DNA from: Candidatus Latescibacterota bacterium
Lineage (GTDB): Bacteria > Latescibacterota > UBA2968 > UBA8231
Assembly: GCA_965200315.1 (NCBI GenBank)
Contig: OZ241362.1
Coordinates: 416,001-480,000 of the forward strand
Length of the DNA: 64,000 bases
Direction of reading: 5' to 3'
The position numbers and the translations under genes are program-made. A model generated the notes under the pieces. The model was not told the origin of the DNA, ran no database searches, and was given only the letters and a program-made list of their open reading frames with translations. How positions within the stretch are numbered: position 1 is the stretch's first letter; every line of letters starts with the position of its first letter. Positions 316-22,060 of this stretch are shown one piece after another.

Positions 316-1115
316 TGACGCTTGGCGTGGCAGGCCATGATCACGAGATCGTCGCCCATCGGGATGCCTTGCGGGGTTGCCGCGATATCCAGCTTGTACA
401 CGAAGCCGACTGTGCCGCAGTCTTGGAACAAAAAATAGATGGGCTGGTGTTGTTGCACGTGGAAGATAAATCGCATTGGATCGGCGCGGCCCTAGCAGCC
501 GGTCTGCACGTTATGGCGACCCATCCGGTACAGGTGTCGAGCCCTTCCAAGGTGTGTGTGCTGTCCTTGGGGAGGCATACGCACTTTTGCTCGGCTTTAG
601 CCGCTCGACGGGGCGTAGCGCATTATTCACTGGAACTTTCTTTTAATTCGGCTTTATTCGATCCTATTGATCGCGAGACGATCTGCAACCAAGCGGCCTT
701 GGACGTATGCGACCTGTTGCTGAGTACGTGGGGGCCGGTAGATGTGCTGTACAGCAGGATGCGCAACTTCTTTCATCTTGGTCGGATGGAGGACGTGTCG
801 GTCGCGCTGCTGAGGATGCGCAACGGCGTCGAAGGCTCGGTTGCGATCCTAGACTTTCCGGCTGTGGCTCCGACGTTGTGCATCCGCGCATACGCACAAG
901 ACGCAATAATTGATACTTCTTGGCCTTGGGTATGGGAAGCGGGCGATCTGGCGGCGTACTATCGCAATTTTGTCGCCTGCATCCAAGGGCGCGCCCAGCC
1001 ATTGTTGCGTTTAGAGCAGGTGGCCGCAAGCTATCGTCTTTTGGAATGGATGCGCACATCGGCGAGACAAGATGTTATTTTGAACCGCAAGCAAGTAAAA
1101 CAATATGTCTTATAA
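312..1115 (+). CDS. Gfo/Idh/MocA-like oxidoreductase (divergent)
   Basis: Rossmann-like N-terminus, ALAAGLHV, EDVSVALLRMRNG and C-terminal FVACIQG patterns; ATGA overlap with hprK. Confidence 0.55.
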   Translation: MMTLGVAGHDHEIVAHRDALRGCRDIQLVHEADCAAVLEQKIDGLVLLHVEDKSHWIGAALAAGLHVMATHPVQVSSPSKVCVLSLGRHTHFCSALAARRGVAHYSLELSFNSALFDPIDRETICNQAALDVCDLLLSTWGPVDVLYSRMRNFFHLGRMEDVSVALLRMRNGVEGSVAILDFPAVAPTLCIRAYAQDAIIDTSWPWVWEAGDLAAYYRNFVACIQGRAQPLLRLEQVAASYRLLEWMRTSARQDVILNRKQVKQYVL

Positions 1116-1132
1116 AATTTTTTATGTAAATG
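1105..1132 (+). other. dif-like Xer recombination site 1
   Basis: ATGTCTTATAA-AATTTT-TTATGTAAATG, 11-6-11 layout; right arm resembles the XerD arm of B. subtilis dif (TTATGTAAACT). Confidence 0.7.
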
Positions 1133-1136
1133 AAAA

Positions 1137-1661
1137 ATGAAAGAACAATCAACGCAACCCACGTACTTCGCTCTTGCGCTAGCATTCTTCTTATTGGCGA
1201 TCGTGTTGCTGTTCAACATGCTGGGTCCTATGGCCGTGCCGGTTACTAGGGAACAGTTCGATCAGATACAAGAGGCCAATCTCATCGAGTATCTGATCGT
1301 GCAACCCCAAGGATTTACTTGGCAGCTTGCAAGAGCCGTCCGTGTCCAAGGTGCCAACGGCGAGACGGTAGCCAAGCGGATTGAGCTAGCCGAGCCGGAC
1401 CCAACCGTGGCCGAAGATTGGCGACAAAAGGGGGGCGCAGTGCGTCAAGAGCAAGATACCTCGTGGTGGGGAGGTGCGGTCTTCATGGCCTTGTTGCTCG
1501 GCGTGGGGGGATGGCACATCTGGTCCCAAATACGACTGGATATCAAAGGGGGAGGAGGGCCACGCCGCCGCTTGCGCGACTTGGAAGCCGCGCTCAAACA
1601 AGGCAAAATTACCCAAGCCGAATTCCGGCAGCAGGCCGAACGGCTCTGGGCCGAGTTGTGA
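1137..1661 (+). CDS. Membrane protein resembling the FtsH N-terminal region, with a C-terminal SHOCT-like helix
   Basis: Two hydrophobic helices flanking a soluble domain; C-terminal GKITQAEFRQQAERL. Confidence 0.55.
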   Translation: MKEQSTQPTYFALALAFFLLAIVLLFNMLGPMAVPVTREQFDQIQEANLIEYLIVQPQGFTWQLARAVRVQGANGETVAKRIELAEPDPTVAEDWRQKGGAVRQEQDTSWWGGAVFMALLLGVGGWHIWSQIRLDIKGGGGPRRRLRDLEAALKQGKITQAEFRQQAERLWAEL

Positions 1662-1667
1662 GGATAT

Positions 1668-3458
1668 ATGGCGAGTACTATTCGCGTTCTCGACGAAAGT
1701 CTCATTGGAAAAATAGCCGCTGGCGAGGTGGTGGAACGGCCCGCTTCGGTCGTGAAGGAATTGGTCGAAAACTCGATTGATGCGGGGGCCACTAAAATCT
1801 GCGTGGAAATCAGGGCCGGTGGCAAGCAGTCGGTCGTCGTGACCGACGATGGCTCGGGCATGAACAGAGAGGATATCGCGCTGTGTGTATGCCGTCATGC
1901 CACGAGCAAAATGGCTTCAGTGGCCGATCTGTTTCGCATTCAGACGCTGGGGTTTCGCGGCGAAGCCTTAGCCAGCATTGGTGCGGTAGCGCACTTGGCT
2001 ATTGAATCGCGTACAGAGCAAGACGAAACCGGGACGCGCTTGGTTATAGAAGGCGGCATAGAGCGAGAGATGCACAGCATCGGCCGAGCGCGTGGTACGA
2101 CCATTGTGGTAAAGAACCTGTTTTTTAATACGCCAGCGCGGCGCAAGTTCCTCCGCTCGGTCAATGCGGAAGCTCGCCACGTGGCGCAGACCATCATCCA
2201 TCTAGCCGCTGGTTATCCGGCTCTTGGTTTTGAACTAGAGCACCAAGATCGCCAAGTATTGAACTACGCCCCGGCGTCTCGTCGGGAACGGGCGGCCGAG
2301 CTGTTGGGCATCCAGACTGCTCCAGCCGACGAGTTGTTGGATCTCGCCCACGAGGAGGAGGGCCTCAAAATCGAAGGGGTCTTAGCCGGTCCCGAACACT
2401 GCGGCCGGAGCAAGGGCAAGCAGTATCTCATCGTACAAGGACGGCCCATCTCTTCGCGGCTGATGGCTACCGCTGTACAGCGGTGCTTTGAAGGTTTACT
2501 ACCCGAAGGACATCATCCAGTATTCATGCTCTGGATCGATATGGATCCCAAGAAAATCGACGTCAATGTCCATCCGACGAAGCGGGAGATTCGCTTGTCC
2601 AACGAAGGGCAAGTCATCGCGGCTATTGAGAGCAGCGTCCGGCATACCTTGCGCCTGCCCGATGTCCGATCCTTCGTCTATACTGCGGCCCCAAGGCCGG
2701 ACAGCACACCTCGCTTCAGCGAGACCAGCAGTGCTGCGGGCGTCGAGCCGGTTTCGGTGCGCGTGGGCGAATCGGCGGCACCGGTATTGCAAAGATTGCC
2801 TACGCCCGAAGCGCCCGAGTCAGCAGTTCATGCAAACGACCAACTCAATATGGCCCTCGTCGCTCCAGCCTCAGTCAAAGTCGCTGTCGCCGAAGATGCT
2901 GCGATGTGGCAGATCCACAACCAGTACATCCTCGTCGAGGTAGCCGATGGATTGCTCTTTGTCGACCAGCAGGCGGCGCACGAACGCATCAACTACGATC
3001 GGGCCATGGCGCAAGTGGACGGCGCGGCCAGTGAGAGCCAGCAGTTGCTCTTTCCCATACAGCTAGAAATGGGCGCAGAAGATTTCGAGATCTTCAACCA
3101 AGTGCGAGATGATATTACCAAGCTAGGCTTTGTCGCGCGCGATTTTGGTGCGCGGACGGTGTTGGTGGAAGCTGTGCCCGCTGAATTAGATCGCTTTGGT
3201 GAAGGCAATGCTTTTTATCAGCTATTGAACGATGTGCGCGATGGCCAGCATTCGGGCCGCTCTTGGCGCGAAGCACTCGTCTTGGCTTATGCGCGCAAGG
3301 CGAGCATTAAGAAAGGGCAGAAACTGAACGCCGAGGAAATAGCGCACTTGATCAACGAATTGCTAAAGGCCGACTCACCGCACGTAAGCCCAACGGACAA
3401 GCCGATCATGGCGAGGATGAAGTTGAGCGATATGGAGCGTCTATTGCGGAAGTTCTAG
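1668..3458 (+). CDS. mutL: DNA mismatch repair protein MutL
   Basis: KIAAGEVVERPASVVKELVENSIDAGA, TLGFRGEALASI, DVNVHPTK and QQLLFP clamp motif. Confidence 0.97.
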   Translation: MASTIRVLDESLIGKIAAGEVVERPASVVKELVENSIDAGATKICVEIRAGGKQSVVVTDDGSGMNREDIALCVCRHATSKMASVADLFRIQTLGFRGEALASIGAVAHLAIESRTEQDETGTRLVIEGGIEREMHSIGRARGTTIVVKNLFFNTPARRKFLRSVNAEARHVAQTIIHLAAGYPALGFELEHQDRQVLNYAPASRRERAAELLGIQTAPADELLDLAHEEEGLKIEGVLAGPEHCGRSKGKQYLIVQGRPISSRLMATAVQRCFEGLLPEGHHPVFMLWIDMDPKKIDVNVHPTKREIRLSNEGQVIAAIESSVRHTLRLPDVRSFVYTAAPRPDSTPRFSETSSAAGVEPVSVRVGESAAPVLQRLPTPEAPESAVHANDQLNMALVAPASVKVAVAEDAAMWQIHNQYILVEVADGLLFVDQQAAHERINYDRAMAQVDGAASESQQLLFPIQLEMGAEDFEIFNQVRDDITKLGFVARDFGARTVLVEAVPAELDRFGEGNAFYQLLNDVRDGQHSGRSWREALVLAYARKASIKKGQKLNAEEIAHLINELLKADSPHVSPTDKPIMARMKLSDMERLLRKF

Positions 3459-3482
3459 TGTTTGGACACCTGATGATCAGGA

Positions 3483-3514
3483 ATACTAACGATAACAGGC
3501 ATTATCGTTAGTAT
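3483..3514. other. Perfect 13-bp inverted repeat with 6-bp spacer; candidate tyrosine-recombinase core site
   Basis: ATACTAACGATAA-CAGGCA-TTATCGTTAGTAT, 120 bp upstream of the recombinase gene. Confidence 0.75.
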
Positions 3515-3634
3515 AACAAGTGTGCTACACAGCGGGCAAAATGCTGCGATGTTCGCTATATTTTTTCTTAGCCACTGTTAAGAACATCCCGGATATTTAG
3601 TCATCAGACCTTTAGCCCCTGTGAGCATATTCAG

Positions 3635-4609
3635 ATGAGCCGCGCACTCACTCCAGTCGTCCGCCAACTAACGCCAACACCAGCGTTGATGGCGGACGAT
3701 CCTCTGGAACAATTTCTCAGCGGTCAGCTCAGCGAGCGTACGCGACGTGCGTATTACGCCGATCTCCAGCATTTCTTTTTATCCATCGGCCTAGAACTAA
3801 ATGAAGTGTCGCTCGCTGTCTTGCAGTCAATCACCTTTGAGCACGTGGTCGCCTTTAGAAACCAGCTCGCCAGCGAAGGCTACAAGCGCAGCAGCATCAA
3901 CAGAAAGTTGTCCAGCCTGAAGTCGTTGTTCAAGATGTTGGTCGCCTTGGGCCACATTGAGAAGAATCCCGCCGACTCTACGTTGGTGCGCGGCTACAAG
4001 GTTGATGAAACGCTGGCTGGCAAAGCACTTTCCAATCAGGTGCTGAATAAGATTCAGCAAGCCATTGCCGAGGAAAAAGACGATTTGGTTCGTACGCGCG
4101 ATGCGGCCATGTTTCATTTGCTCACATTCGGCGGGCTGCGCCGCTCTGAAGTGGCAGGCGTCGCTTGGGAAGATATATCCTTGGAGGGCGTCTTTTACAT
4201 CCTGCACCTGCCCCAGACTAAATCGGGCGTGGTGCAGGAGATCAAACTGCAAAACATCGTCTTACATCATCTCGAACTGTACAAACAACAACTACAGGTG
4301 GCGGGCTTGCCGGCGACCGGCAAAGTCTTTATCAGCTTGTCGCGCAACCAATCTCGCGGCCGGCCGCTGACCGACCAATCGGTAAATCACATCGTCAAGA
4401 AATACGCCCTGCGCGCAGGCCTCCCCCAAAACGTCACTGCACACATGTTCCGCCACACATGCTGCACCCTAGCGATTGAAGGCGGAGCCAAGCCCCAGCA
4501 GGTGCAAGCCCATTTGCGCCACAAGGATCTAAAGACGACGATGCGCTACTACGAAAACCGCGAGAGGCTGCTCGATAATGCGTCTGATTATATTAGGATT
4601 GGTAGTTGA
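3635..4609 (+). CDS. XerC/XerD-like tyrosine recombinase
   Basis: SAM-like N-domain (SERTRRAYYADL, SSINRKLSSLKSLF); catalytic R (GLRRSE), K (QTKSG), HxxR (HMFRH), H (LRH), Y (TTMRYY). Confidence 0.93.
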   Translation: MSRALTPVVRQLTPTPALMADDPLEQFLSGQLSERTRRAYYADLQHFFLSIGLELNEVSLAVLQSITFEHVVAFRNQLASEGYKRSSINRKLSSLKSLFKMLVALGHIEKNPADSTLVRGYKVDETLAGKALSNQVLNKIQQAIAEEKDDLVRTRDAAMFHLLTFGGLRRSEVAGVAWEDISLEGVFYILHLPQTKSGVVQEIKLQNIVLHHLELYKQQLQVAGLPATGKVFISLSRNQSRGRPLTDQSVNHIVKKYALRAGLPQNVTAHMFRHTCCTLAIEGGAKPQQVQAHLRHKDLKTTMRYYENRERLLDNASDYIRIGS

Positions 4610-4627
4610 GTGTTTTTTGTTGTGTTT

Positions 4628-4655
4628 TATTTACATAAAAAATTTTATAAGACAT
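4628..4655 (-). other. dif-like Xer recombination site 2 (inverted copy of site 1)
   Basis: Minus strand reads ATGTCTTATAA-AATTTT-TTATGTAAATA; 27/28 identical to 1105-1132. Confidence 0.7.
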
Positions 4656-4681
4656 TATATTTTTCAGACTTCACTGAGACC

Positions 4682-7564
4682 TTACACCACGATATTAACA
4701 ATTTTATCCGGCACCCATATAAAGCGCTTTATTGCCGTTTCATCGGCCACGTATTTCTGGATGCTCTCCATATCGAGTACCAAGGACTTGATTGCGTCCT
4801 CGGCGGTGCTGACGGGCACTTTGACTTGTCCGCGCATTTTGCCGTTGACCTGAATGGGGACTACGATCAGGTCCTCAGCGGCCTTGGCTGCATCCCAGTC
4901 AGGCCAACTCTGGCGACTAAGCTCTCCCCTCCCCAAGCCCGCCAGTTCCCAGATCTCCTCGGCAATATGCGGAGCAAAGGGCACCAGCAGGATCAAAAAC
5001 GGCTTAGCAACCGCCTGCGGTACTTCGTCTAAAGACACCAACTGGTTGTTTAACTCGATCAAGGCGGCAATCGCCGTATTAAACCGCAACCCCTCTATGT
5101 CCTCAGCTACCTTTTGGATGGTTTGGTGCAGCTTTCTTTCTAGGTCAGGTCCCAACACCGCGCTCGCCCCTATCTTCACGCGCCGGTCCGAATCGACAAA
5201 GTTGCGCCAAACGCGCTGCAAGAAGCGCTGCATCCCGCGAATGCCTTCCATGCTCCACGGAGCACTCGCTTCGAGTGGCCCCATGTACATTTCGTATAGC
5301 CGCAGGGTATCCACGCCAAATTCCTCGCCAATTTCTTCGGGCGGCAACCCATTTTTGTAGCGCTTGCCCATTTTGCCGAAAGACTGGCGTAGCACCTTCC
5401 CCGTCCCCTTTTCAACAGGCTCCCCATCGCGGAATTCGACCTCGCGGATGTCGATATACACACCGCGCTCGTCCTGAAAGGCATCCGCGGTCATCATGCC
5501 TTGGTTGAACAACTTCTTAAACGGCTCAGGCGTGGATACGTGGCCCAAGTCGTAGAGGGCCTTGTGCCAAAACCGAGCGTAGAGCAAGTGCAATACCGCG
5601 TGTTCAGCACCGCCGATGTAGAGATCAACGGGCATGAAGTAGCTCTCTTTGGCCGGGTCGCAGAAGGCTTCTTCGTTGTGCGGATCGATAAAGCGGAGAT
5701 AATACCAGCAAGAACCGGCCCATTGGGGCATGACGTTGAGTTCGCGCCGGCAGGCCACTCCGTCAATTTCCACTGTCGTCCACTCTGTTCCGGCCCGGTG
5801 CAACGGCGGTGCAACGGGTTGGGTGGGATCGTCAGAGGTTTCCGGTCTGAAATCCTCTAAGTCCGGCAGCGCCACCGGAGGCACCACCGCGACGGAATAT
5901 CCATCGGGGTGCGTGGCCAGTGGAAAGGGCTCGCCCCAATAGCGCTGCCGAGCAAAGGTCCAGTCGCGCAATTTGTAGTTTACCGCGGCTTGGCCACGCC
6001 CTTGGGAGACTAGTACGGCGACGATCTGAGCTTTGGCCGCGCCCGTTGCCAAGCCGTTAATGGCGTATGGATTATCTCCGCCCCGTACTGGAGAATTGAT
6101 CGCAGTTCCCTCCCCGGCATACCACTCCTCGGCCCTTCCCTCCCCTCCAGTAACTACCTTCACAATGTCTACGTTATAGGTGGCGGCAAAGGCGAAATCG
6201 CGCTCGTCGTGGGCCGGCACCGCCATAATGGCACCCGCGCCATAGTCCATGCTGACGTAGTCGGCGACGAAAATGGGAATTTTTTGTCCGTTGACTGGAT
6301 TGCGGGCATAGATGCCGGAGAAAATGCCCGTTTTTTCCTTGGTTTCATCCGCTGTGGAGACGGCAACCTGAGCTACGTATTGGGCTACCGCTTCCCGGAT
6401 GGATTCCCCGCCTCCCTTCCACTGCTCCGGCGTTCCGTCGGGCCAGACGCTGGGCACTAAGTAGGCTTCCCCGGCGGGATCCACCAGCGGATGCTGAGGG
6501 GCAATCGCCATAAAGGTCGCTCCGAAAAGCGTGTCGGGCCGGGTCGTGAACACGGGCAATTGCCCAGCGACCGCGTCGCTTTGCGGGTCAAGGACATCGA
6601 AGCACACTTCAGCTCCTTCGCTGCGGCCGATCCAGTTGCGCTGCATCCGTTTGATAGGCTCTGGCCAATCGAGACGAAAGGGCGCGCCGTTGCGGTCCTC
6701 CAGCTCAAAGTCCAAGTCCTCTAAGAGCCGCTCGGCGTAAGCTGTTATGCGCATCGTCCATTGTCGCAGTGGTTTGCGATACACGGGAAAATCGCCCCGC
6801 TCGCTGCGGCCTTCGCTGTTTACCTCCTCGTTGGCCAATACAGTGCCCAAGCCCGGGCACCAGTTGACGACGGCCTCTTGCTGGTACGCTAGTCGGTAGT
6901 TGTTTAACACAGCTTGCTGCTGGGCCGTGGTTAGTGCAGACCAAGCTGCATCGGTGCTGAGCACTTGGCAATCTGCGGCCGACAGGGCCCTGCCAGCCGC
7001 AAATTGGGCCTCTAAGTCGGCGATGGGCTTGGCTCGTCCCTTTATTTGGCGTCCATTGCCGTCTTCCCAGAGCTCGTCTGCGTCGAAATAGCTGTCGAAT
7101 AGCTGGGCAAAAATCCACTGAGTCCAGCGGTAGTATGACTCCCGCGACGTGACCACTTCGCGGCCCCAATCAAACGAGAGTCCAAGAAACTGCAATTGGC
7201 TGCGCATCGCAGCGATATTCTGCTCTGTTACAGCCGCTGGATGGATGTTGTGTTCGATCGCGTATTGCTCGGCCGGCAATCCGAAACTGTCGAACCCCAT
7301 CGGATGCAGGACGTTAAATCCCTGCATCCTTTTGTAGCGGCTGTAGATGTCGCTGGCGATATACCCTTTGGGATGGCCGATGTGTAGCCCGGCGCCGCTG
7401 GGATAGGGAAACATATCGAGGATGTAGCACTTGGGTTTGCGGTCGTCGAAACCAACCTCCCCCGGCCCCAGCGTTTGATAGGTTTTCTCCTGCTCCCAAT
7501 GGGACCGCCATTTGGTTTCGATGTCTTGGAAATTGTATTGGTCTTTTTTTTGTTTTGTTGACAT
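4682..7564 (-). CDS. leuS: Leucine--tRNA ligase
   Basis: MFPYPSGAGLHIGH, FTTRPDTLFGATF editing domain, YIGGAEHAVLHLLYARF, KMGK variant of KMSKS. Confidence 0.97.
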   Translation of the reverse strand: MSTKQKKDQYNFQDIETKWRSHWEQEKTYQTLGPGEVGFDDRKPKCYILDMFPYPSGAGLHIGHPKGYIASDIYSRYKRMQGFNVLHPMGFDSFGLPAEQYAIEHNIHPAAVTEQNIAAMRSQLQFLGLSFDWGREVVTSRESYYRWTQWIFAQLFDSYFDADELWEDGNGRQIKGRAKPIADLEAQFAAGRALSAADCQVLSTDAAWSALTTAQQQAVLNNYRLAYQQEAVVNWCPGLGTVLANEEVNSEGRSERGDFPVYRKPLRQWTMRITAYAERLLEDLDFELEDRNGAPFRLDWPEPIKRMQRNWIGRSEGAEVCFDVLDPQSDAVAGQLPVFTTRPDTLFGATFMAIAPQHPLVDPAGEAYLVPSVWPDGTPEQWKGGGESIREAVAQYVAQVAVSTADETKEKTGIFSGIYARNPVNGQKIPIFVADYVSMDYGAGAIMAVPAHDERDFAFAATYNVDIVKVVTGGEGRAEEWYAGEGTAINSPVRGGDNPYAINGLATGAAKAQIVAVLVSQGRGQAAVNYKLRDWTFARQRYWGEPFPLATHPDGYSVAVVPPVALPDLEDFRPETSDDPTQPVAPPLHRAGTEWTTVEIDGVACRRELNVMPQWAGSCWYYLRFIDPHNEEAFCDPAKESYFMPVDLYIGGAEHAVLHLLYARFWHKALYDLGHVSTPEPFKKLFNQGMMTADAFQDERGVYIDIREVEFRDGEPVEKGTGKVLRQSFGKMGKRYKNGLPPEEIGEEFGVDTLRLYEMYMGPLEASAPWSMEGIRGMQRFLQRVWRNFVDSDRRVKIGASAVLGPDLERKLHQTIQKVAEDIEGLRFNTAIAALIELNNQLVSLDEVPQAVAKPFLILLVPFAPHIAEEIWELAGLGRGELSRQSWPDWDAAKAAEDLIVVPIQVNGKMRGQVKVPVSTAEDAIKSLVLDMESIQKYVADETAIKRFIWVPDKIVNIVV

Positions 7565-7583
7565 AATTATCCTTATAAGACAC
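7556..7583 (-). other. dif-like site 3 at the asnS/leuS junction
   Basis: Minus strand reads GTGTCTTATAA-GGATAA-TTATGTCAACA; overlaps the leuS ATG and abuts the asnS stop. Confidence 0.55.
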
Positions 7584-8961: not shown

Positions 8962-11031
8962 TTACTTCTTTAACAGAGCCTTGTGGCTGAGCCGCATCTT
9001 GCCGCCGGTATCGATTTCGAGGACCTTGACGGCGATCCTGTCCCCTTGCCCAACGACGTCTTCGACCTTGTCCACGCGCCGATGCGCCAGCTCGGAGATG
9101 TGCAACAGGCCCTCCTTGCCAGGCAGAATCTCGACGAAGGCCCCAAAAGGCATGATCCGTTTGACCACCCCGTCGTACTCTTTACCGACTTCGGCGTCGG
9201 CCGTGATTCCCTCGATCATGCGCCGCGCCTCTTCGGCTGGACCTGCTTCAACCGAGGCAATGGTAATCGTGCCGTCTTCATCGACATTGACCGTGGCACC
9301 GGTCTTTTCGATCTCGCGGATGGTTTTGCCCCCCGGGCCGATGACCGCGCCGATTTTGCTCTGGTCGATCTTGACAAACTCAATGCGCGGTGCCCAGCGC
9401 GAAAGCTCGGGCCGCGCTGGGCTCAGACATTCGTTCATAAGGGCCAATACTTGGTCGCGCCCCTCCTTGGCGCGGTCAAGGGCCTCCTTGAAAATGTGGA
9501 GCTGCAAACCCTGGATCTTGATGTCCATCTGAATCGCGGTAATTCCGTCCTTGGTGCCAGCGACTTTGAGGTCCATGTCGCCGAGAAAATCTTCGGCGTC
9601 GCGGATGTCGGTCAGTAGCTCGTACTCGTCCCCTTCCTTGACCAAGCCCACACCCGTGCCGCACACCGCAGTTTTAACGGGAATACCGGCGTCCATCAAG
9701 GCGAGCGAGCAGCCACACACCGTGGCCATAGAACTGGAGCTGCTCGACTCGGTTATGTCGGACACTAAGCGAATCGTGTAGGGAAAAGATTCAACTGATG
9801 GGATGACCGGCTCTAAGGCGCGCTCGGCCAAATGCCCATGGCCGATGTCCCGCCGTCCCGGCCCGCGCTCAAAGCGCACTTCGCCAACCGAATACGGCGG
9901 GAAATTGTAATCCAAGTAATAGGACTTAAACCGCTTGCCTTGCAGATCGTCGGCCATGCGCTCGTCGAGCTTAGTGCCCAGCGTCGCCACGCAGAGCGCT
10001 TGCGTCTGTCCACGAGTAAACAGCGCCGAGCCGTGCGTCCGCGGCAACACCGTACTCTCGCAGGTAACGTCTCGCACCGCGTCGAGTGCGCGGCCGTCGA
10101 TGCGCCGCTTTTCCTTGAGGATCATGGTGCGCATGTCGGCCTTGAGTAGCGCTTCTAGCTCGGCCAAGATGAGCTTTTCCGAGTCTGGAAAGCGCTCGGC
10201 CAAACCCTCCAAAACGTCGGCATTGATCGCGTCGATGCGCTCTTGTCGCTCTTCTTTGCGCGGACTTCTGTTGGCCTCGGCGATCCGTTCTTGCGCCAGC
10301 TCGACAACGGCGTGGACCAGTTCGGGCTCGGCTTCTGCGACCTCGACGACAATTTTCTCCTTGCCGACTTCAGCAACCAGCCGCTCCTGTAGATCGACCA
10401 GTTCGGCGATGCATTCGTGGCCAAAGGCCAACGCATCCACCAGATCTTGCTCGGCAATCTCGTGGGCACCCCCTTCGACGCTGACGATGGAATCGGCCGT
10501 ACCGCAGACAATGATTTCGAGATCGGACTCATCTAGCTGGGCGGAAGTCGGATTGGCGACAAACTCGCCGTTGATGCGCCCGACTCGCACGGCCCCCATG
10601 GGGCCAGCAAAGGGAATGTCGGAGATACTCAAGGCCGCTGAAGCCCCGATTAAACCCAAGACATCAGCGTCGTTTTCGCCATCGTACGAAAGCACTGAAA
10701 CATAGACTTGGATCTCATAGGGAAACTTCTTGGGAAACATCGGCCGAATGGGGTGATCTATTAACCGGGCACTCAGGGTTTCCTTTTCGGAGGGACGCCC
10801 TTCGCGCTTGAAGATGTTGCCCGGTATCTTGCCGCCAGCGTAGGCCTTTTCCCGGTAATCTACGATCAAGGGCAGAAAGCCCCGATCTTCCGGCTTGTTA
10901 GTCCGGCAGGCTGTTACCAGCACTACGGTCTCTCCGTATTGCATCCACACAGCCCCGTTGGCTTGCTTGGCGATTCTGCCCGCTTCAAGCGACAGACTCC
11001 GCCCGCCTATTTCGCGTTCGAGTTTAGTCAT
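8962..11031 (-). CDS. pnp: Polyribonucleotide nucleotidyltransferase (PNPase)
   Basis: Two RNase PH domains (RLIDHPIRP, HGSALFTRGQTQ, GDMDLKVAGT), KH (IGPGGKTIR) and S1 domains. Confidence 0.97.
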   Translation of the reverse strand: MTKLEREIGGRSLSLEAGRIAKQANGAVWMQYGETVVLVTACRTNKPEDRGFLPLIVDYREKAYAGGKIPGNIFKREGRPSEKETLSARLIDHPIRPMFPKKFPYEIQVYVSVLSYDGENDADVLGLIGASAALSISDIPFAGPMGAVRVGRINGEFVANPTSAQLDESDLEIIVCGTADSIVSVEGGAHEIAEQDLVDALAFGHECIAELVDLQERLVAEVGKEKIVVEVAEAEPELVHAVVELAQERIAEANRSPRKEERQERIDAINADVLEGLAERFPDSEKLILAELEALLKADMRTMILKEKRRIDGRALDAVRDVTCESTVLPRTHGSALFTRGQTQALCVATLGTKLDERMADDLQGKRFKSYYLDYNFPPYSVGEVRFERGPGRRDIGHGHLAERALEPVIPSVESFPYTIRLVSDITESSSSSSMATVCGCSLALMDAGIPVKTAVCGTGVGLVKEGDEYELLTDIRDAEDFLGDMDLKVAGTKDGITAIQMDIKIQGLQLHIFKEALDRAKEGRDQVLALMNECLSPARPELSRWAPRIEFVKIDQSKIGAVIGPGGKTIREIEKTGATVNVDEDGTITIASVEAGPAEEARRMIEGITADAEVGKEYDGVVKRIMPFGAFVEILPGKEGLLHISELAHRRVDKVEDVVGQGDRIAVKVLEIDTGGKMRLSHKALLKK

Positions 11032-11121
11032 TAGATATATCTTTTACTCTTTCCTTTGGAGTTTTGAAATCTGCGCGGCACTCGTATGAGCACCGCAGTG
11101 AGTCGAGTCGTTTAATGCGAG

Positions 11122-21090: not shown

Positions 21091-22041
21091 TCAACTCGCC
21101 CCACTATCCCATCGATGCTCCCACTCGCCGACGATGCGCTCGACGACGCCCGCCTTTCCCCATACGTCGAGGTCCAACTCGCGCAGGCGGCGGTCGCGGC
21201 GGCACCACGTTGTTTGCCGTTTGGCCAAATGTCGGGTGCGCTGTTTGGTCTGTTCGATGGCTTCCTGCCAAGGGCAATGCCCGGCCAGTGCGCTGCACAT
21301 TTCGAGATAGCCCAAAGTCCCCAAGGCGCTGTCGCTTGGATCGTAGCCCATTTCGCACAAGGAGCGGACTTCCTCGACCCATCCCCGCTCGACCATCTGT
21401 TCGACTCGCTGGTCAATTCGCTCGTAGAGCCGGCTGCGCGCCATGGTCAGACTGATCATTTGCGGCTGACTCACAAGGGGCTGTCCCTTGCGCTCCCGCC
21501 AGAGCTTGCTGAGCGTGCCCTTTCCGGCCAGTCCCACCTCCAATGCCCGTAGGATTCGCTGCGCATCACTCGGCGGCAAACGCGCTTGCGCGACCGGATC
21601 GCGACGACCCAATTCCTCGTACAGGGATGCAAGCCCCTCGCCGTGCAGGCGATGTTGCAATTCGGCGCGGATTGGCGCGTATTCAGTTTCATCCTCAAAG
21701 CATCCGTCTAAAGCACTCTGCCAGTACAAACCCGTCCCTCCTACCAAGACGGGCAGGCACCCTCTGTTCCAGATCTGCTCAATGACGCGCCGCGCGGCTC
21801 GGGCATACGCTCCGGCGCTGTAGTTTTCCTCGGGACCAAGTACGTCAAGCAGGTGATGGGGACATTGGTTCTGCTGTTCAGCGGTTGGCTTGGCCGTGCC
21901 AATATCCATGTAGCGGTAGATTTGCCGCGAGTCGGCCGAGATGATTTCCACTTTGGGCAAGTGCCGGGCTACTTCGAGGGCTATTTCTGTTTTGCCGGTG
22001 GCGGTGGGTCCGGTGATTAGGAGGAGAGGTTTGGTTGACAT
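21091..22041 (-). CDS. miaA: tRNA dimethylallyltransferase
   Basis: GPTATGKT, DSRQIYRYMDIGTAKP, VGGTGLY, AKRQTTW. Confidence 0.95.
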   Translation of the reverse strand: MSTKPLLLITGPTATGKTEIALEVARHLPKVEIISADSRQIYRYMDIGTAKPTAEQQNQCPHHLLDVLGPEENYSAGAYARAARRVIEQIWNRGCLPVLVGGTGLYWQSALDGCFEDETEYAPIRAELQHRLHGEGLASLYEELGRRDPVAQARLPPSDAQRILRALEVGLAGKGTLSKLWRERKGQPLVSQPQMISLTMARSRLYERIDQRVEQMVERGWVEEVRSLCEMGYDPSDSALGTLGYLEMCSALAGHCPWQEAIEQTKQRTRHLAKRQTTWCRRDRRLRELDLDVWGKAGVVERIVGEWEHRWDSGAS

Positions 22042-22060
22042 ATTAAAAATTATAGGACTA
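22033..22060 (-). other. dif-like site 4 (degenerate) at the rqcH/miaA junction
   Basis: Minus strand reads TAGTCCTATAA-TTTTTA-ATATGTCAACC; contains the upstream TAG stop and the miaA ATG. Confidence 0.4.

Follow-up and report, generated by a model that had tools for sequence, protein, structure and literature searches.

The DNA stretch analyzed here, referred to as the window, comprises 64,000 nucleotides (genome positions 416,001–480,000) of the 5,359,245-base single-contig genome of a Candidatus Latescibacterota bacterium (GCA_965200315.1, contig OZ241362.1). An array of six dif-like sites straddles the replication terminus of this sponge-symbiont chromosome. The innermost two sites are inverted and enclose a three-gene module, which has flipped at these sites repeatedly in the evolution of the relatives, with at least five independent flips. 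One module gene codes for a predicted third Xer-like tyrosine recombinase, and a palindromic site, termed P, is located upstream of it. The region probably represents a lineage-specific Xer-based terminus architecture, the centre of which is occasionally inverted in a site-specific manner.

The inner left site s-1 (1105–1132, + strand) has the sequence ATGTCTTATAAAATTTTTTATGTAAATG, which divides into arms and spacer as ATGTCTTATAA-AATTTT-TTATGTAAATG. The inner right site s+1 (4628–4655, − strand) is a reverse-complement copy of s-1 with A replacing the final G, giving 27/28 identity with the 6-bp spacer AATTTT common to both. The 28-bp core consists of two partly palindromic 11-bp arms and a 6-bp centre, with inner ATAA and TTAT motifs, and thus has the anatomy of dif. 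By sequence, both members of the inner pair belong to the XerC/XerD type of dif core site. B. subtilis dif presumably has an XerD arm nearly identical to the right arm TTATGTAAAT. At ≤3 mismatches, the window contained exactly two matches to the 28-bp site, whereas the mean of 100 dinucleotide-preserving shuffles was 0. In the whole genome, the 27-mer matched only at s-1 and s+1 with the same tolerance, and the reversed control gave 0 matches. A chance origin of the sites was ruled out by the shuffles and the reversed-pattern controls. The duplicated DNA is limited to the 28-bp sites, with none beyond.

Exactly three genes, identified by open reading frames and profile matches, are enclosed by the pair: a small membrane-protein gene (1137–1661, + strand, 174 amino acids), which is the first gene of the module throughout the genus, mutL (1668–3458, + strand; TIGR00585, 482 bits), which is single-copy in the genome, and the tyrosine recombinase gene. 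The sites are tightly fitted to the genes: the flanking gene orf267 terminates with the TAA in the left arm of s-1, the membrane-protein gene begins 5 nt past s-1, and s+1 is placed between the stop codons of the recombinase gene and leuS. In both orientations of the module found across relatives, an inner site lies 5 to 30 nt ahead of its first gene. An initial annotation of this DNA, made from the sequence alone, had described the inverted, near-identical pair including the shared spacer, its 11-6-11 ATAA-N6-TTAT layout, and the enclosed genes; all of this was borne out by the sequence and the genome-wide match counts.

The cumulative GC-skew maximum was located at genome position 419,551 (window 3551; 419,555 after detrending), inside the module and between the inner sites. 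The detrended skew minimum at 2,963,490 lies beside the sole dnaA match (2,962,028–2,962,516), and genes are on the + strand through the recombinase gene and on the − strand from leuS onward. Together, the skew maximum between the sites, the minimum at dnaA, and the switch of gene strands place the sites at the replication terminus, opposite dnaA, where dif belongs. The initial annotation had offered a duplicated-dif terminus and a pdif-like module as alternatives to its own proposal. The former came nearer the truth, but the repeat is confined to the 28-bp sites. Over the whole chromosome, C exceeds G by a net 32,798 on the strand as given, and the replichores differ in length, with approximately 2.82 Mb on one side and 2.54 Mb on the other between dnaA and the skew maximum. 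The metagenome runs containing this DNA are labelled sponge metagenomes.

The orientation of the module was compared across related genomes. In orientation A, that of the window, the membrane-protein gene lies beside orf267 and the recombinase gene beside leuS; orientation B is the reverse. Among 20 loci from genus genomes, 14 had orientation A and six orientation B. With named relative records added, 26 loci were typed, of which 16, counting the window, had orientation A and 10 orientation B; the short contig L078 was untypable and is outside the 26. In a maximum-likelihood tree of LeuS, AsnS, and HprK with 24 rows (16 A, 8 B), five orientation changes were needed, all of them forced by well-supported branches (shuffled mean, 6.9). 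Sister pairs of opposite orientation were L058/L059 and L070/L071 (support 100 each), L062 versus L065 and L101 (support 100), and L068/L069 (support 91). Orientation B was present in the single-contig chromosome assemblies L065, L069, L070, L074, and L075, which makes misassembly unlikely. No rearrangement of the region other than the module flip was observed in the 26 typed loci. The inversion that the initial annotation had only considered possible is therefore documented by both orientations among sister species, by breakpoints within the sites, and by at least five independent changes.

The breakpoints were resolved by comparing sisters (L070/L071, L062/L065/L101, and L058/L059). In each comparison, the sisters share the flank sequence (the orf267 or the leuS end) together with the entire 11-nt left arm adjoining it. 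The rest of the site, spacer and right arm, travels with the module end, with ATAATT-TTATGTAAAT at the membrane-gene end and AATTT(A/T)- or AAATT(A/T)-ATATGTAAAC/T at the recombinase end. This partition puts the breakpoint within the site and to the left-arm side of the spacer, an interval that contains the cut point of the left-arm-bound recombinase in canonical Xer sites. In 6 of 20 genomes, among them that of the window, the two inner spacers match each other exactly; permutation gave 2.1 such genomes on average (P = 0.008, with related genomes not being independent). This excess suggests that the inner sites have exchanged or converted sequence with each other.

The initial annotation had assumed only two dif-like sites. 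A genome scan with the degenerate pattern GTCYTATAA-N6-WTATGTMAA (≤3 mismatches) gave nine matches, six of which are clustered within 43.8 kb at the terminus, at genome positions 394,268(+), 411,547(+), 417,107(+), 420,630(−), 423,558(−), and 438,035(−). The remaining three matches and the four matches of the reversed control all had three mismatches and were scattered. The six sites follow the order + + + | − − −, with three sites per replichore and s-1/s+1 as the innermost pair. The XerD-like arm TTATGTAAA, (W)TATGTMAA, faces the terminus in all six, and both arms are conserved throughout. The third site in the window, s+2 (7557–7583, − strand; GTGTCTTATAA-GGATAA-TTATGTCAAC), comes right after the asnS stop codon; its spacer GGATAA supplies the ribosome-binding GGA of leuS, and its right arm contains the leuS ATG. 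It was found at the leuS 5′ end in 23/23 loci having both leuS and asnS. The outermost right site, s+3 (22033–22060, − strand; core GTCCTATAA-TTTTTA-ATATGTCAA), is likewise located at a gene junction, and its right-arm ATG is the start of a P-loop protein gene, which we take to resemble miaA. The two outer left sites, both on the + strand and identified by the degenerate pattern, are outside the window at genome positions 411,545–411,572 and 394,266–394,293. Every site of the array is exactly on a gene border, with a stop codon and sometimes a start codon within the site. The outer spacers are kept among species (CATATA in 12/22 at s-2, GGATAA in 12/23 at s+2); the inner ones are variable, with 11 distinct spacers among 22 loci at one inner site and 13 among 23 at the other.

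Matches at ≤1 mismatch were obtained in 29 of 31 genomes of the genus, with a control total of 2, and a shorter exact pattern matched in all 27 other genus genomes of ≥85% completeness; in these scans, genomes of the genus had two to seven matches each. In 25/25 genus genomes having both orientations on one contig, all + sites are ahead of all − sites, as read off the match list, and complete genomes (e.g. G002, G003, G012, G014, and G043) show + + + − − − across approximately 44 kb. Other genera of the family carry pairs or arrays, too: an inverted pair 1.1–1.3 kb apart in G053 and G060, + + − in G049, and + + + − − in G054. In the sister family, five complete genomes have one good site each, of the type TATAA-GATNCA-TTATGTAAAC, at the local skew switch, with other matches scattered; an orthologue of the module recombinase was not found in these five. 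A weight matrix combined with an inverted-repeat search recovered more diverged sites than the first pattern scans. In the distant relatives L082, L086, L092, L093, L106, and L109, an inverted XerCD-type pair surrounds no gene but that of the recombinase, P being present in some of these loci and absent from others. At the threshold used, no XerCD-type site was found in several distant loci, e.g. L085, L088, L089, L094, L098, L099, L103, and L104.

Genome G054 differs in gene content at this place: the 960-residue leuS, elsewhere between two direct sites, is gone from the terminus, an 844-residue leuS with 45% identity is present at C1:305,890–308,334 (loci L082/L123), and the recombinase gene (L082) is flipped relative to mutL.

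The recombinase gene of the module (3635–4609, + strand; PF00589, 97 bits) codes for 324 amino acids. The catalytic set R169, K204, H270, R273, H296, and Y305 is kept completely, as determined by alignment to the host XerC and XerD. The protein scored below the cut-offs of the XerC, XerD, XerA, and XerS models, with the best score of 128.8 bits for XerC, 109.4 bits for XerA (cut-off 220), and 81.3 bits for XerS (cut-off 267); its nearest solved structure is E. coli XerD (E = 3.5e-17). In total, the genome encodes four tyrosine recombinases. Canonical XerD and XerC are encoded outside the module, which the initial annotation had not noted: host XerD was identified with TIGR02225 (346.9 bits, cut-off 329.6), and the XerC-like protein scored just under the cut-off of TIGR02224 (316.5 bits versus 335.15) and passes the subfamily model NF001399. 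An FtsK gamma domain (FtsK_gamma, 98.8 bits) and an SMC hinge protein are also encoded. The fourth tyrosine recombinase, a weakly Xer-like protein of 345 amino acids (57 bits to XerA), is located at genome positions 1,219,121–1,219,681 (L006:1465–2502, − strand) and occurs in some relatives.

Orthologues of the module recombinase with 78–95% identity were found in 22 of 24 other genus genomes; they were missing in one 58%-complete genome and in G024. The best matches in 16 genomes of the other three families had 27–32% identity. A wide search yielded 316 proteins at E ≤1e-10 among 2,258 candidates; the best 120 of these 316 were all 60–91% identical, and none was specifically named. No relative above 32% identity was detected in a plasmid collection (72,556 records) and none above 30% in a phage collection (50,697 records). 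The module recombinase is thus a predicted third, divergent, and catalytically intact Xer-like protein that is conserved across the family. Given this conservation and the lack of close plasmid or phage relatives in these collections, its family looks like a conserved chromosomal gene rather than a mobile-element integrase.

Site P, absent from the initial annotation, is a perfect palindrome (3483–3514, unstranded; 11-6-11 core 3485–3512, ACTAACGATAA-CAGGCA-TTATCGTTAGT) between mutL and the recombinase gene, 122 nt upstream of the latter. Counting the flanking AT, it has a 13-6-13 structure, with the inner ATAA-N6-TTAT as in dif. The genome contains no second copy of it, and the cumulative GC-skew maximum is 40 bp away. 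Of 53 loci, 44 carry a P-type site ahead of the recombinase gene. Variants of its arms stay symmetric (ACTACCGATAA/TTATCGGTAGT, ACTCCCGATAA/TTATCGGGAGT, and ACCAACGATAA/TTATCGTTGGT); in the covariation analysis of the arms, 89.8% of cells were paired and 12 cells had changed on both sides, and neither value was reached in 500 shuffles. Many genus members have two mismatches in the right arm (TTATCAATAGT), and the strict P pattern matched in 10/63 family genomes versus 0/53 genomes of three other families. The symmetric arms suggest that one protein species binds both halves, and P is probably the module recombinase's own symmetric binding or recombination site.

The spacer of P (window 3496–3501) is CAGGCA-like or, as the reverse complement, TGCCTG-like relative to the gene, and differs even between the sisters L074/L075, the arms being unchanged (compared in L067, L074, L077, L081, L086–L089, L096, L098, and L104). 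The reversal could result from a hairpin loop flip or from a core inversion made by the recombinase. P-like sites are repeated in two genomes, with five copies sharing one common spacer in G046 (contigs C6, C9, and C12) and three in G051 (C4 and C5); these copies may indicate that a related site is used by an element that is repeated or mobile.

In the scenario that we favour, the sites would be bound and recombined by Xer proteins. The exchange between the inner sites would be catalyzed by whichever tyrosine recombinase binds the left arm (XerC or the enzyme encoded in the module) and would comprise the first-strand exchange only. The Holliday junction would then be resolved by replication or repair, which would explain why the spacer stays with the right arm. 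A single strand exchange followed by replication or repair is the route used by Xer-exploiting phages. Flips would be rare and nearly neutral, since in either orientation the module reads in the same direction as the operon ahead of it; they would arise incidentally from the maintenance of two inverted sites competent for recombination and would not constitute a mutL switch. The array presumably functions in the terminus, in dimer resolution, SMC unloading, FtsK arrest, or fork arrest. It would organize this region, with the polar XerD-type sites possibly resembling the XerD-specific dif-like sites of B. subtilis (XDS) in unloading SMC, or stopping FtsK. The differing spacers would insulate neighbouring direct repeats by blocking deletion between them, while each site could still pair with its sister copy. 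The third recombinase would act as a homodimer at P. A more elaborate version assumes a Xer terminus of three layers, in which the homodimeric recombinase works at the central P, the inner pair of XerCD sites allows the centre to flip, and the outer sites, on gene junctions and polar towards the terminus, halt SMC, FtsK, or forks from one side only or serve for their unloading; a flip would then move the effective replichore junction between the inner sites. We consider this extension conceivable but rather doubtful.

Several observations weigh against an Xer-based terminus with an occasionally inverted centre. Of 20 genomes, 14 have inner spacers that differ from each other, a mismatch expected to impede a complete Xer reaction. 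The sister pair L058/L059 shows a C/T difference at left-arm position 6 that moves with the module, so that the crossover was left of the canonical cleavage point or a second event took place. The recombinase-side inner site of L066 (about 11,010–11,040) has a 7-bp spacer, and L072 (G009) has lost the site downstream of the recombinase gene; both look like natural 'locked' variants. At ≤2 mismatches, P was missing in 9/53 loci, two of which have <250 bp of upstream sequence, and P could also fold as a 13-bp RNA hairpin behind mutL, albeit with no T-tail. With regard to XDS, those known from B. subtilis conserve the XerD half only, whereas both arms of the six sites are conserved here. Finally, assembled Logan contigs of four runs from two studies span or bridge both junctions in orientation A only, with no alternative junction. 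Two of these runs are near-identical to the DNA studied and possibly its source; the other two represent strain variants (12 to 14 base differences). Since contigs drop rare variants, only a balanced mixture of orientations is excluded by this result, and the flip rate is weakly limited. A joint of 1966 to 2967 in the contig mapping was disregarded because it came from other contigs touching just 24–26 nt of mutL. An assembly artefact was ruled out by contigs of 28.5 and 44 kb (from two studies, both possibly of the source sample) that hold the whole stretch, as well as by both orientations in single-contig chromosome assemblies.

The initial annotation had suggested that inversion tunes mismatch repair via mutL. 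In the corresponding explanation, frequent flips within a population would alter mutL expression by placing the gene behind the hprK or the leuS operon, resulting in mutator and non-mutator subpopulations. This would agree with the inverted sites and identical spacers of this genome, with a recombinase encoded within the segment as in Hin/Gin-type switches, and with the nearly random distribution of orientations on the species tree. However, the same three module genes are co-directional behind an operon (orf267 or leuS side) in either orientation, which makes an on/off control of mutL unlikely. Moreover, no promoter-in/promoter-out logic is visible, the contigs of the four runs, two strain variants included, have one orientation, and 14 of 20 relatives have unequal spacers. 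We regard a fast switch via inversion as improbable at this locus. The same low probability is assigned to flips that are not site-specific, in which the short inverted repeats would recombine by RecA or template switching as forks meet, the sites otherwise being only dif or XerD sites. In favour of such flips, the identical 11-nt left arm is the finest interval to which the crossover can be narrowed, one pair seemingly had it left of the canonical cleavage point, and the two orientations of the P spacer are explicable by a hairpin-mediated loop flip without a recombinase. On the other hand, just 11 to 28 bp of identity are available to such a process, and the at least five independent flips among 24 species had the same end points, with the typed loci being free of any other rearrangement.

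Explanations that assign the sites a different role altogether were also considered. In a polar replication-fork trap, the opposed site groups would be Ter-like barriers bound by an Xer-family protein, possibly the third recombinase, and inversion would be a side reaction. The geometry, in which asymmetric sites form two groups facing each other across the skew switch, fits such a trap, though by geometry only, and so does the gene for a DNA-binding protein between the innermost pair, which can be likened to B. subtilis rtp adjoining the inner Ter pair. Yet we know of no Xer protein acting as a fork barrier, a mere barrier protein would have no need for all the catalytic residues that the recombinase keeps, and recombination at the sites evidently took place; the trap is accordingly given little weight. 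Very unlikely, in our view, are mobile cassettes of the dif-module/IMEX type, in which the sites border Xer-mobilized modules as in Acinetobacter pdif and the island merely happens to be at dif. The placement of each site exactly at a gene border, with a stop and sometimes a start codon inside, the central module bounded by inverted sites, and the absence of the 960-residue leuS from between the direct sites of G054 would suit such cassettes. Their cargo, however, would be single-copy housekeeping genes (the only mutL, leuS, and asnS), the gene order is kept through the genus, and the recombinase has no close relative in the plasmid and phage records. Furthermore, the sites are polar, whereas extracts of a report on module islands (PMC12907356) describe alternating C/D and D/C sites. 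The pdif-like module of the initial annotation therefore fails on the pattern of site orientations and on the cargo.

A textbook chromosome has one dif, and extra functional copies are expected to give deletions or inversions. The locus is like the chromosomal dif/XerC/XerD/FtsK system of E. coli and B. subtilis in the 28-bp 11-6-11 core with ATAA-N6-TTAT at the GC-skew switch, and in encoding XerC, XerD, and FtsK gamma. It is unlike this system in having six sites instead of a single copy, an inner inverted pair whose members recombine with each other, and an extra recombinase with a palindromic site at the centre. Invertible segments carrying their own recombinase are known from Hin/hix, Gin/gix, and the 2-micron FLP/FRT. 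They share with the module a recombinase gene between inverted short sites and the existence of both orientations, here among species; the module differs from them in its terminus location and its dif-type sites, and in that no promoter or alternative-gene logic is visible. With Tus-Ter and RTP-Ter, the array has in common two opposed polar groups of sites flanking the terminus, a likeness by geometry only.

In the B. subtilis terminus, XDS unload Smc-ScpAB (Karaboja et al. 2021, as cited in passages of PMC11840125 and PMC10945525). Similarly, several dif-like sites are clustered near dif in the terminus, and XerD and SMC are encoded by the genome studied here. Since both site arms are conserved, an XerD-only site cannot be deduced. 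We know of no description of XDS with strict inward polarity, gene-junction placement, or a central invertible module. In L. delbrueckii ssp. bulgaricus, two inverted dif sites lie in a large terminus inverted repeat, and extracts of the report (PMC5345009) state that recombination between them would invert the DNA. According to the same extracts, those sites were duplicated within decaying inverted repeats of 38–76 kb, whereas only the 28-bp sites are repeated here, the arrangement is conserved in the family, and flips are documented. The chromosomal dif module islands of Acinetobacter, as far as extracts of PMC12907356 describe them, contain alternating C/D and D/C sites and accessory or resistance genes and involve movement between plasmid and chromosome. 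They resemble the locus in genes bounded by Xer core sites, in several sites in a row, and in a central module with an inverted pair; they differ from it in that the array is polar, located at the terminus, composed of housekeeping genes, and without a plasmid link, and in that the sites on either side of the adjacent blocks are directly repeated. Single-recombinase Xer systems (XerS/difSL, XerH/difH, and archaeal XerA/dif; extracts of PMC1914069 and PMC5357621) have a recombinase gene beside an 11-6-11 site at the terminus, as is the case for P. In contrast to these, XerC and XerD are both retained here, and the module protein is under the XerS and XerA cut-offs; no XerH model appeared in the output of its profile scan.

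The literature searched, excluding the XDS primary paper and supplementary files, yielded no paper that describes complete dif-like sites arrayed convergently on the junctions of housekeeping genes, an evolutionarily flipping terminus module, or this recombinase family. The whole family keeps the six dif-like sites in strict converging polarity, with a documented inner inversion and, at the centre, a conserved third recombinase and a symmetric site. If functional, the array would be a natural case of spacer divergence insulating neighbouring recombination sites, possibly a second example, outside Firmicutes, of XerD-type sites organizing a terminus, and the source of a new pair of recombinase and site. 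The organisms are uncultured sponge symbionts, and the parts are short and open to testing in vitro or in a surrogate host.

The genes flanking the module are conserved in order across the genus. On the left, hprK (1–315, annotated from the profile and open reading frame listing) is followed by orf267 (312–1115, + strand, 267 amino acids), the last gene of the hprK-side operon, which stays put when the module flips. On the right, leuS (4682–7564, − strand, 960 amino acids) lies between the directly repeated s+1 and s+2. Beyond it, on the same strand, come a class II aminoacyl-tRNA synthetase gene putatively termed asnS (Pfam tRNA-synt_2) and then pnp. The orf267 product and the 174-residue membrane protein have no Pfam or NCBIfam match above the cut-off, and both are conserved beside mutL across the family; the 174-residue protein shows 31–51% identity in other genera. 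Weak sigma-70-like matches (9/12; TTTACA, 17 nt, CATATT or CATTAT) are present at 1102–1130 (− strand) and 4630–4658 (+ strand), in which the right arm of each inner site forms the −35 element; they point outward from the module, antisense to the flank genes.

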